Shown piece after piece: positions 41,601 through 49,030 of a stretch of DNA of 64,000 nucleotides. The stretch covers positions 4,972 through 68,971 of the forward strand of contig JAJDER010000037.1 in assembly GCA_029259725.1 (NCBI GenBank). The letters run 5' to 3'. The notes under the pieces were generated by a model. It saw nothing but the letters and a program-made list of their open reading frames with translations, did no database searches and was not told the origin of the DNA. Source of the stretch: Planctomycetota bacterium. Its GTDB lineage: Bacteria > Planctomycetota > B15-G4. How positions within the stretch are numbered: position 1 is the stretch's first letter; every line of letters begins with the position of its first letter. A program made the position numbers and the translations under genes.

Positions 41601-43277
41601 TCAGAGGCTCGCCACGTCCCGGATCTCGTACGTGTAGCCCTGCTCGGTCAGGAACAGCTGCCGGTTGTTGGCGAAGTGCTCCTCCCGGCTGTCGCGCGTC
41701 ACCAGCGAGTAGAAGATCGCCTGACGGCGGTCGCTCTTGGGCCGCAGGATCCTTCCGAGGCGCTGGGCCTCCTCCTGCCGCGATCCGAACGTGCCCGAGA
41801 CCTGGATGGCCACGTTGGCGTCGGGCAGGTCCACGGCGAAGTTGCCCACCTTGCTGACCATGAGCACCTTCAGGACGCCCTCGCGGAACTGCTTGTAGAG
41901 CACCTCGCGTTCCTTGGTCGGCGTCCGGCCGGTGATCAGCGGGCACTCGAGGTTGGCGGCGAGCTCGTCGAGCTGGTCCAGGTACTGACCGATGACCAAC
42001 ACCCGGTCGTCGCCGTGGCGCGCCACCAGCTGCGCCACCGCGTCCACCTTCTCGGGGTTCTCCGAAGCGATGCGGAACTGCTCGCGGCTGCCGGCCGAGA
42101 GGTACTCCATCTGCAGGGTCGGGAGCAGCGGCAGGCGCACCTCGACGCAATGCGCCGTGGCGATCCAGCCCTGCCGTTCGAGCACCTTCCAGGGGACGTC
42201 GTACTTTTTCGGGCCGATGAGCGAGAAGACCTCCTCCTCGCGCCCGTCTTCGCGCACCAGCGTGGCGGTCAGGCCCAGCCGGCGCCGCGCCTGGATCTCC
42301 GCCGTGACGCGGAACACCGGGGCCGGCAGCAGGTGCACCTCGTCGTAGACGACGAGCCCCCAGTCGCGTGCGCCGAACAGCGAGAAGTGCGTGAACTCCC
42401 CGGTCTTGCGCTTGCGATAGGTGAGCATCTGGTAGGTCGTGATCGTGACCGGGCAGATCACCTTGTTGTCGCCGGTGTACTCGCCGACCTCGTCCTCGGT
42501 GAGCGACGTCTTGTCGAGCAGCTCGTCCCGCCACTGGCGCACGGCGATGGTGTTGGTGGTCAGGATCAAGGTCTGCGTCTGGAGCCGTTGCATGCAGCCG
42601 ATGGCCACGACGGTCTTGCCGGCGCCACAGGGCAGCACGACCACGCCGCTGCCCCCCTTCTCGGTCCCGCCGGCGTGGAAGATGTCGGCCGCTTCGGCCT
42701 GGTAGCCGCGCAGCTCGAACGCCCCCCCGCCGGAGCGTACCGAGCGGTTGGCGAGTCCGAAGGCCAGGTCGGCTCCGTGGGTGTACCCGGCCAGGTCCTC
42801 GACCGGGAAACCGATCTTGATCAGCGCCTGCTTGACCTCACCGCGCAGGTGTTCGTTGACGACCAGCCCGCCGTCCTCGCGTCCGTTCTTCTCGAAGAAA
42901 CGCTTGAGCGTCGCGTTCCGGGCCAGGTTGTCGAGCAGCTCGGAGTCGTCGGAGCGCAGCACGAGGCGCTCGCCGTCGCGCACGAGCTTGAGCAGTCCGA
43001 ATCGCCGGATGTGGTCCTCGATGAAGCGCCGGACGTTGGGCGGCACCGGGTACCGCGAGGCCCCGGCGAGGAACTCGATGATCCGTTCACTCGAGCGTCC
43101 GGCGGCCGCGGCGTTCCAGATCGACAGCGGCGTCAGCCGGTAGGTGTGGATGTGCTCGGGGCTCTTCACCAGCTCGGCGAACAGCGACAGCTCGTCGCGC
43201 GCCTCGGTGAAACCCTCGGCGTGGACCTCGGCCAGGATCGTGTGGTCGCTCTGGACCGTCAGCGGTTGCGAGGTCAT
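41601..43277 (-). CDS. XPB/ERCC3/Rad25-type SF2 DNA helicase/translocase
   Basis: 558 aa. It has an N-terminal damage-recognition-like domain followed by the helicase motifs LRGYQ, VLPCGAGKT (motif I), DEVHLLPA (motif II), the XPB-specific RED motif (TATLVREDG), and the C-terminal lobe FGSRQEEAQRLGRILR. Its ATG overlaps the UvrA-UvrA stop (ATGA). Confidence 0.9.
   Translation of the reverse strand: MTSQPLTVQSDHTILAEVHAEGFTEARDELSLFAELVKSPEHIHTYRLTPLSIWNAAAAGRSSERIIEFLAGASRYPVPPNVRRFIEDHIRRFGLLKLVRDGERLVLRSDDSELLDNLARNATLKRFFEKNGREDGGLVVNEHLRGEVKQALIKIGFPVEDLAGYTHGADLAFGLANRSVRSGGGAFELRGYQAEAADIFHAGGTEKGGSGVVVLPCGAGKTVVAIGCMQRLQTQTLILTTNTIAVRQWRDELLDKTSLTEDEVGEYTGDNKVICPVTITTYQMLTYRKRKTGEFTHFSLFGARDWGLVVYDEVHLLPAPVFRVTAEIQARRRLGLTATLVREDGREEEVFSLIGPKKYDVPWKVLERQGWIATAHCVEVRLPLLPTLQMEYLSAGSREQFRIASENPEKVDAVAQLVARHGDDRVLVIGQYLDQLDELAANLECPLITGRTPTKEREVLYKQFREGVLKVLMVSKVGNFAVDLPDANVAIQVSGTFGSRQEEAQRLGRILRPKSDRRQAIFYSLVTRDSREEHFANNRQLFLTEQGYTYEIRDVASL

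Positions 43278-49030: not shown

Follow-up and report, generated by a model that had tools for sequence, protein, structure and literature searches.

The planctomycete DNA analysed here, a 64,000-nucleotide stretch of contig JAJDER010000037.1 (positions 4,972 to 68,971 of assembly GCA_029259725.1; hereafter the window), encodes a tandem-fused UvrA in which two complete class I UvrA protomers are joined within a single open reading frame (ORF). The explanation that best accounts for the observations as a whole, and one that we regard as likely, is that this is the housekeeping nucleotide excision repair (NER) UvrA of a planctomycete, fused in tandem, likely forming an intramolecular pseudo-dimer, and asymmetric in its UvrB-binding domains (UBDs). 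The fused form of UvrA in Planctomycetota was already known, and annotators call it UvrA; the newer points are the UBD asymmetry between the first and second protomers (half 1 and half 2) and the neighbouring genes for an XPB helicase and a p52-like protein.

Two complete UvrA protomers in one reading frame

The earlier note on this DNA, made from the sequence alone, had proposed that one ORF holds two complete UvrA protomers, each with the full motif inventory, joined by a basic linker, and all of this was confirmed. The ORF runs for 1918 aa without an internal stop, and each half alone scores above the 1147-bit cut-off of the UvrA equivalog model NF001503 (half 1, 1307 bits; half 2, 1193 bits), the whole protein reaching 2500 bits in two stretches. 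Both halves likewise exceed the cut-off of TIGR00630 (730 bits; half 1, 1262 and half 2, 1141), and Pfam detects UvrA_inter and UvrA_DNA-bind twice each. Aligned to E. coli UvrA, half 1 covers residues 3-940 and half 2 residues 5-937. The protein contains four Walker A motifs (aa 33, 644, 993, and 1614, with lysines K39 and K650 in half 1 and K999 and K1620 in half 2), four LSGGEAQR signatures (aa 492, 833, 1463, and 1803), and four LDEP Walker B motifs (aa 517, 859, 1488, and 1829). Both halves possess the features of class I UvrA, namely two ATP-binding cassette (ABC) modules (Walker A, signature, Walker B, and H-loop), a UBD within signature domain I, an insertion domain (ID), and three Zn modules. 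Class II UvrA (UvrA2, DrrC, Ecm16) was ruled out as an assignment because both halves contain the UBD. The linker (aa 944-963, 20 aa) reads KPRERRVAAARKRKPSSARP. The ATG start lines up with the beginnings of E. coli UvrA and every homologue in the alignment, and an alternative extension upstream to 49243 covers a stretch that, in another frame, is an inositol-monophosphatase gene. An identical (100%) protein is present at NCBI (P0001).

The two halves are 49% identical over ~940 aa (BLASTP). By domain, identity is 60% in ATP-binding I, 52% in signature I, 54% in ATP-binding II, and 57% in signature II, compared with 33% in the UBD and 24% in the ID, in keeping with the earlier estimate of about 60% in the first ABC region and far less in the inserted domains. 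At the DNA level, the halves are 69-78% identical in conserved cores only, and because of this an assembly duplication, against which the earlier note had also argued in favour of an old fusion, can be excluded.

An artefact of another kind, in which a stop or frameshift at the junction of two adjacent ordinary uvrA genes was hidden by sequencing or assembly error, would also yield a double-length ORF, and locus L054 (described below) has such genes unfused, as two full-length uvrA ORFs side by side in different frames. Nonetheless, the best 120 homologues, which derive from independent NCBI, JGI, ENA, and Logan assemblies, all read through the junction, one of them coming from the isolate genome of Lignipirellula cremea (CP036433), and the G+C content at third codon positions (GC3) is 0.95 in half 1 and 0.92 in half 2, in one shared frame. 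We therefore assign a negligible probability to such an error. Judged from these sequence comparisons, the fused UvrA is a true and old fusion, in which two complete protomers are joined in frame.

Table 1. Features of the window discussed in the text (nucleotide positions in the window; aa, amino acid positions in the encoded protein)
Feature	Position	Strand	Remarks
Tandem-fused uvrA ORF	43274..49030	-	1918 aa + stop; ATG start; zero internal stops
Half 1, complete class I UvrA protomer	46202..49030	-	aa 1-943; more canonical of the pair
Inter-protomer linker	46142..46201	-	aa 944-963; basic, Pro/Arg-rich, unconserved
Half 2, complete yet more diverged UvrA protomer	43277..46141	-	aa 964-1918
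Half 1 UBD	48266..48673	-	aa 120-255; conserved RKGEY loop, aa 160-164
Half 2 UBD	45365..45793	-	aa 1080-1222; fold kept, loop lost (KPGTL, aa 1129-1133)
XPB (ERCC3/Rad25-type) superfamily 2 (SF2) helicase	41601..43277	-	558 aa; NF045503, Pfam
XPB partner, 'helicase-associated domain' protein	39251..41437	-	~700 aa; start uncertain, 41437 to 41398
Inositol-monophosphatase-family gene	49036..49869	-	Pfam Inositol_P, E 2.6e-62
Y-family (DinB/IMS) translesion polymerase gene	30423-31709	-	~12 kb from uvrA operon
ORF of ~1539 aa	1590-6209	-	GC3 0.89; no Pfam match at E <= 1e-5

Distribution and origin of the fusion

Relatives of the fused UvrA were taken as the best 120 matches from a collection of 5.8 billion proteins. 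All are 1700-2500 aa long, every one comprises two end-to-end UvrA units, and most come from Planctomycetota, the named ones being excinuclease ABC subunit UvrA of Planctomycetota, Pirellulaceae, Planctomycetia, and Lignipirellula cremea. A scan of one genome per GTDB species recovered fused UvrA in metagenome-assembled genomes (MAGs) of Planctomycetota (the closest, 66-72% identity), in Phycisphaerales (54-55%), in MAGs with Myxococcota or Deltaproteobacteria labels that form a coherent group, and in Parachlamydiales and Anoxychlamydiales (36-39%). The fusion was noted as the UvrA of planctomycetes, e.g., Tuwongella immobilis, by Mahajan et al. 2021 (PMC8567305, Fig. 13), with UvrA, B, C, and D all detected in the Tuwongella proteome (PMC8567305), and NCBIfam holds a double-length 'excinuclease ABC subunit A' model of 1809 positions. 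Given the uniformly double-length best 120 relatives, the existing model and published note, and the forms in Chlamydiae and other MAGs, the suggestion that such proteins are a rare and uncharacterised class had to be abandoned: the fused architecture is known and common, and is the standard form in Planctomycetota. Our literature search returned the one-sentence note in PMC8567305 and no biochemical or structural study of fused UvrA, and the PDB holds no UvrA chain longer than 993 residues.

The history of the fusion was assessed with neighbour-joining (NJ) trees of the separated halves, using single UvrAs as outgroups and 200 bootstraps. Half 1s of the window's broad clade grouped together with 84% bootstrap support and half 2s with 68%, the internal topology of the half 2s mirroring that of the half 1s. 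Because the halves form separate clades with mirrored topology, the trees point to one old fusion followed by co-divergence in this broad clade, and the age that the earlier note had ascribed to the fusion is thereby corroborated. A single origin of all fused UvrAs was unsupported by the same trees. Halves of the Pirellulales and Chlamydiae types joined the main clades in 0/200 bootstraps and paired with each other in 30% and 65%, respectively, giving weak support for independent origins and a hint that separate fusions took place in Pirellulales and Chlamydiae. Linkers of the 120 homologues span 14-43 aa (median 20), are of low complexity, and share no conserved sequence, and inter-unit gaps in other fused lineages are similarly short; such short linkers would fit a geometric constraint whereby the termini lie close together in the dimer.

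Two further sets of loci bear on this history. One fused-UvrA group (L010-L027, L033, L035, L037, L040, L042, and L046) carries inconsistent labels (Myxococcota, Deltaproteobacteria, 'Enterobacterales', Rhodobacterales); both of its halves nest in planctomycete clades, and the K-G-E loop of the half 2 UBD (see below) is deleted outright, a pattern that suggests gene transfer or mislabelled bins. On the Bathyarchaeota-labelled chromosome CP070835.1 (L054, 7884-13750), two full-length uvrA ORFs of 1003 and 957 aa stand back to back in different frames with an overlap of a few bases, and represent either a tandem stage without fusion or a fusion that has been frameshifted.

Integrity of both halves

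To score residue conservation, both halves of 116 orthologous double proteins were aligned with E. coli UvrA, whose numbering is used below, with residue roles assigned after Manelyte et al. 2010 (PMC3025350). Both halves show no variation at either Walker A lysine (proximal or distal), at the Walker B Asp-Glu, at the H-loop histidine, or at R216 of the UvrB/Mfd surface, and G502 is invariant except for one Ala among the 116 half 1s. At the DNA-binding arginine positions of both halves, R712 is invariant, R724 and R730 are nearly always Arg/Lys, and the R722 position is Arg in some proteins and Lys in others. Among the 116, again in both halves, 111-115 have CxxC at the Zn2 and Zn3 pairs scored. 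In the window protein itself, half 2 has an intact Walker B, an intact H-loop, and intact CxxC pairs in Zn1-Zn3, and R218 and E224 of half 1 correspond to E. coli R216 and E222.

These comparisons bear on the possibility of a decayed duplicate, in which only one half works as UvrA and the other is a functionless scaffold. Half 2 is steadily the more diverged of the two: it is 49% identical to E. coli UvrA where half 1 is 53% identical, half 2s share 53% identity among orthologues where half 1s share 58%, and the half 2 UBD is missing a near-universal motif. Nonetheless, among the 116 orthologues half 2 has both Walker A lysines, the Walker B Asp/Glu, the H-loop His, G502, and R216 invariant or nearly so, along with three of the four DNA-binding Arg positions (the fourth, R722, is Arg/Lys in both halves), it retains the Zn2/Zn3 CxxC pairs in 111-115/116, and it alone exceeds the equivalog cut-off. 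On careful alignment, then, neither half lacks essential ATPase or Zn residues, the loss of which the earlier note had named as the mark of decay, and we consider this explanation very improbable.

Asymmetry between the halves lies in the UvrB-binding domain

The asymmetry first pointed out for this protein concerned the Zn1 module. The difference is real: for its second Zn1 pair, half 1 has C-P-E-G-H, making its Zn1 of the Cys3His type (CPEC + C-x3-H), and half 2 has C-A-R-C. However, it does not stand out as an asymmetry of note, since the same pair is CxxC in 65 and CxxxH in 39 of the 116 orthologous half 1s, and the first Zn1 pair of E. coli UvrA itself is C-P-D-H; half 2s among the orthologues likewise vary between Cys and His at Zn1. 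Across the aligned sequences, the Zn1 difference is an ordinary Cys/His interchange that is lineage-specific and not a property of the fused architecture.

In the same comparisons, the consistent asymmetry of fused UvrA is in the UBD and not in Zn1. Identity of this domain to that of E. coli is 41% in half 1 and 29% in half 2, and identity among orthologues is 49% and 37%, respectively. When E. coli residues were screened for those that at least 90% of half 1s but less than 30% of half 2s retain, K159, G160, L192, and H198 were picked within the UBD. Of 29 single UvrAs drawn from several phyla, 28 have the motif (R/Q/E)-K-G-(E/T)-(Y/H/F) together with H198, and the K-G-E loop also occurs in three aligned PDB orthologues. 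The fused lineages examined for this loop were the window clade, Pirellulales, Chlamydiae-labelled MAGs, and Myxococcota-/Deltaproteobacteria-labelled MAGs. Half 1 of every one keeps K159 and H198, whereas K159, G160, and H198 are replaced or deleted in half 2 of every one. In the window protein, the loop is RKGEY in half 1 (aa 160-164) and KPGTL in half 2 (aa 1129-1133), and the equivalent of E. coli E222 is E224 in half 1 and G1191 in half 2. By PDB alignment, the loop maps to Lys160-Asp165 of M. tuberculosis UvrA, and this segment is disordered in the Geobacillus and Thermotoga UvrA structures (PMC3167621). A second reduction specific to half 2 was observed in L034, L038, and P0087, where the ID (E. 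coli 287-402) is absent from that half only.

Each UvrB site on the UvrA2 dimer is a composite of the UBD of one protomer and signature domain II of the other (PMC12796330, PMC11985968). Because the half 2 UBD has lost both the loop and the His, and each UvrB site is made across protomers, the two composite UvrB or cross-protomer sites of the fused UvrA are probably not equivalent.

A proposed intramolecular UvrA dimer

In the mechanism that we propose, one chain would supply two class I protomers, each with two ABC ATPase modules, a UBD, an ID, and three Zn modules, tethered by a disordered linker of ~20 residues. The two halves would pack together into a single-chain counterpart of the UvrA2 dimer that has four ATP sites, and this pseudo-dimer would scan DNA and load UvrB encoded elsewhere in the genome. 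It would be hard-wired as asymmetric, with a canonical UBD in half 1 and an altered one in half 2. The sequence anatomy, the residue conservation, the orthology of each half, and the gene order are observations; from them we find the intramolecular dimer plausible, and we infer UvrB loading by the fused protein, a meaning of the UBD asymmetry for function, and any interaction between UvrA and XPB.

Several points weigh against a housekeeping, intramolecular, and UBD-asymmetric UvrA. The fused chains could possibly form intermolecular or domain-swapped assemblies, and a second, single-length uvrA may possibly be present elsewhere in the genome. No uvrB, uvrC, or mfd was found within the window, and their presence in the genome is assumed from a related species. 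The function ascribed to the lost loop comes from one crystal form of one orthologue, and the invariance of R216 in half 2 implies that this half may still bind UvrB.

XPB and p52-like genes in the uvrA operon

The ATG of the XPB gene overlaps the stop codon of uvrA (ATGA): GCATGACC. The encoded protein belongs to the XPB family, scoring 846 bits against the NF045503 repair_heli_XPB cut-off of 610, and comprises the Pfam domains ERCC3_RAD25_C, Helicase_C_3, and ResIII, in keeping with the XPB layout of an N-terminal domain and two RecA-like domains. Such translational coupling of uvrA to XPB suggests co-regulation with the XPB/p52-like module, and the fused UvrA and this module possibly cooperate.

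The partner gene encodes a protein whose sole Pfam match is Helicase_C_3 (XPB-N-terminal-like, aa 566-687). Its AlphaFold2 model, based on a 54-sequence alignment, has a mean predicted local distance difference test (pLDDT) score of 85. When this model was searched against the PDB with Foldseek, the best 18 matches were all TFIIH p52/Tfb2 chains (E 9e-11 to 9e-6, probability 1.0) over ~320-570 aligned columns, with XPB N-terminal domains ranking next; template modelling (TM) scores were low (0.15-0.39), as expected for a flexible multi-domain chain. The model thus matches the p52/Tfb2 architecture, in which a winged-helix array precedes a clutch domain with the XPB N-terminal fold. In TFIIH, the p52 'clutch' domain adopts the XPB N-terminal fold and recruits XPB (PMC6422496). 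By sequence, the C-terminal domain of the partner matches the eukaryotic XPB N-terminal domain (E 3e-7), there is no Pfam Tfb2 match, and a PDB profile search gives XPB and not p52. The predicted fold thus matches p52 while the sequence match is limited to the C-terminal domain against XPB, and it is for this reason that we call the partner p52-like: according to the model, it is p52-like in architecture and not a member of the p52 sequence family.

The order fused uvrA, XPB, and partner, usually with overlapping stop and start codons, recurs at 14 related loci, among them L002-L006, L008, L009, L045, and L052, as well as L082, L083, L084, and L085 (with XPB as two ORFs in L085), and persists down to 54% UvrA identity. 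In L007, only XPB follows the fused uvrA, the contig ending within the XPB gene. Eighteen partner homologues probably lie on the same contigs as a fused-UvrA homologue, the longest contig recorded for each having the same length as that of a fused UvrA. In L082 (6001-13539), UvrA, UvrA, and XPB are joined in-frame as a single protein of 2512 aa (P0042, MFO0985366.1), and P0196 (1216 aa) is an XPB fused to the p52-like partner; each fusion was seen once, and assembly error is possible. A query spanning the UvrA-XPB junction of P0042 returned matches dominated by UvrA fragments and did not return P0042 itself.

The cassette is absent beside the fused uvrA in L086, Lignipirellula, L088, and the Myxococcota-labelled and chlamydial loci. 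A tie between XPB and loss of the half 2 loop was considered and rejected, the loop also being lost in lineages without an adjacent XPB. In L086 (P0119), a thiamine-phosphate-synthase gene (10787-11425) directly follows the fused uvrA, while in the window a thiamine-phosphate-synthase gene (38602-39375) follows the p52-like gene. Given this arrangement in L086, the XPB/p52-like pair behaves as a cassette of two genes, which this precise site either has or lacks. The link between uvrA and XPB is, in the genomes compared, strong within one clade and no general property of fused UvrAs. We found no paper in which XPB of bacteria is connected to UvrA or a p52-like protein is reported from bacteria, and what bacterial XPB does is described as elusive in a 2026 review (PMC13024598).

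This neighbourhood raises the question of whether the fused protein is instead a specialised paralogue that serves the XPB/p52-like module or some other task, with a separate canonical UvrA performing NER. The tight operon with XPB and the p52-like gene, the one in-frame UvrA-XPB fusion (P0042), and the precedent of class II UvrAs that serve drug resistance would all be consistent with specialisation, and our view of the genome is the window only. However, class II UvrAs are without the UBD (PMC3167621) that both halves here possess, half 1 is no further from E. coli UvrA (53%) than from any other protein, fused UvrAs occur without an adjacent XPB in Pirellulales, Chlamydiae, L086, and L088, and the fused protein is treated as the UvrA of Planctomycetes in PMC8567305. 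We consider a specialised paralogue quite improbable and favour the housekeeping NER protein. A bolder extension, which we offer tentatively and regard as unlikely, is that in the window's clade, which is related to Phycisphaerae, the fused UvrA is the sensor of a hybrid excision-repair machine, passing lesions both to UvrB and to a minimal TFIIH-like XPB/p52-like translocase from its own operon, with the degenerate half 2 UBD repurposed as a docking or regulatory site.

Comparison with known systems

Planctomycete fused UvrAs (Tuwongella immobilis, Lignipirellula cremea) resemble the window protein in having two units in one ORF of ~1900 aa and a short linker; identity to the window protein is 47-72%, and the halves are orthologous within the main clade. 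The XPB/p52-like neighbours, by contrast, are specific to the window's clade. Pirellulales fused UvrAs also differ in an extra C-terminal domain of ~350 aa, absent from the window protein, and in halves that never fall in the main half 1 or half 2 clades (0/200), and may thus represent a separate fusion. This conserved ~350-aa extension was seen in Pirellulales-type proteins of ~2300 aa (P0026, P0027, P0031, P0033, P0035, P0049, P0050, P0056, and P0090; L087). It has no Pfam match, and its model (pLDDT 81) predicts two similar alpha/beta modules without a convincing PDB fold match.

Canonical class I UvrA homodimers (E. coli; Geobacillus 2R6F/3UWX; M. tuberculosis 3ZQJ; T. maritima 3PIH) have the full domains and catalytic residues that are found in each half of the window protein, half 1 scoring 1119 bits against the Geobacillus 2R6F sequence. 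In contrast to these homodimers, the window protomers are covalently joined and diverged (49% identity), half 2 is without the UBD K-G-E loop and H198, and a tethered dimer would be unable to dissociate into monomers. Weakening of the dimer interface has been proposed as part of lesion hand-off by UvrA (PMC11985968).

The chlamydial-type double UvrA (NF001885 / PRK00635, the 1809-position model) is likewise double-length, and environmental Chlamydiae (L028, L029, L044, and L081) have two full units with a degenerate UBD loop in half 2. The window protein nonetheless lies outside this family, scoring 1320 bits against a cut-off of 3054; fused UvrA of environmental Chlamydiae also falls below the cut-off (1452 bits) of this model, which we take to be assigned to Chlamydiaceae. 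Chlamydial loci further differ in their low identity to the window protein (36-39%) and in halves that pair mutually (65% bootstrap).

Like the XPB-p52 pair of eukaryotic TFIIH, the window module places XPB beside a protein with a predicted p52/Tfb2 fold (~510-570 alignment columns), whose C-terminal domain resembles the XPB N-terminal domain as the p52 clutch does. Unlike the eukaryotic pair, the partner does not match p52 or Tfb2 in sequence, the module has no further TFIIH subunits encoded nearby, and the operon includes the bacterial sensor UvrA.

Gene context in the wider window

The inositol-monophosphatase gene stops 5 nt before uvrA begins, an adjacency that is conserved in the closest relatives. 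The two genes are probably in one transcription unit, and we draw no functional link between them. A promoter and terminator scan of 38-53.5 kb returned nothing above chance. The window is otherwise ordinary chromosome, with genes for serine hydroxymethyltransferase (SHMT), S-adenosylhomocysteine (AdoHcy) hydrolase, a DinB-type polymerase, CstA, and a Ser/Thr kinase.

Implications

The fused UvrA could serve as a natural single-chain UvrA dimer, in which the protomers can be mutated independently, something that is impossible with a homodimer, and in which evolution has already made them unequal in the UBD. Open questions stated by the field include whether the complex is UvrA2UvrB1 or UvrA2UvrB2, how a symmetric sensor chooses the damaged strand, and whether the dimer has to separate during hand-off (PMC11985968), and a single-chain UvrA bears on all of these. 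The operon of uvrA, XPB, and the p52-like gene, in turn, bears on the role of bacterial XPB and on the prokaryotic roots of the XPB-p52 pair of TFIIH. Were the hybrid-repair reading true, it would be the first to connect the lesion sensor of bacteria with the XPB opening module of archaea and eukaryotes, and p52 would have a bacterial homologue.

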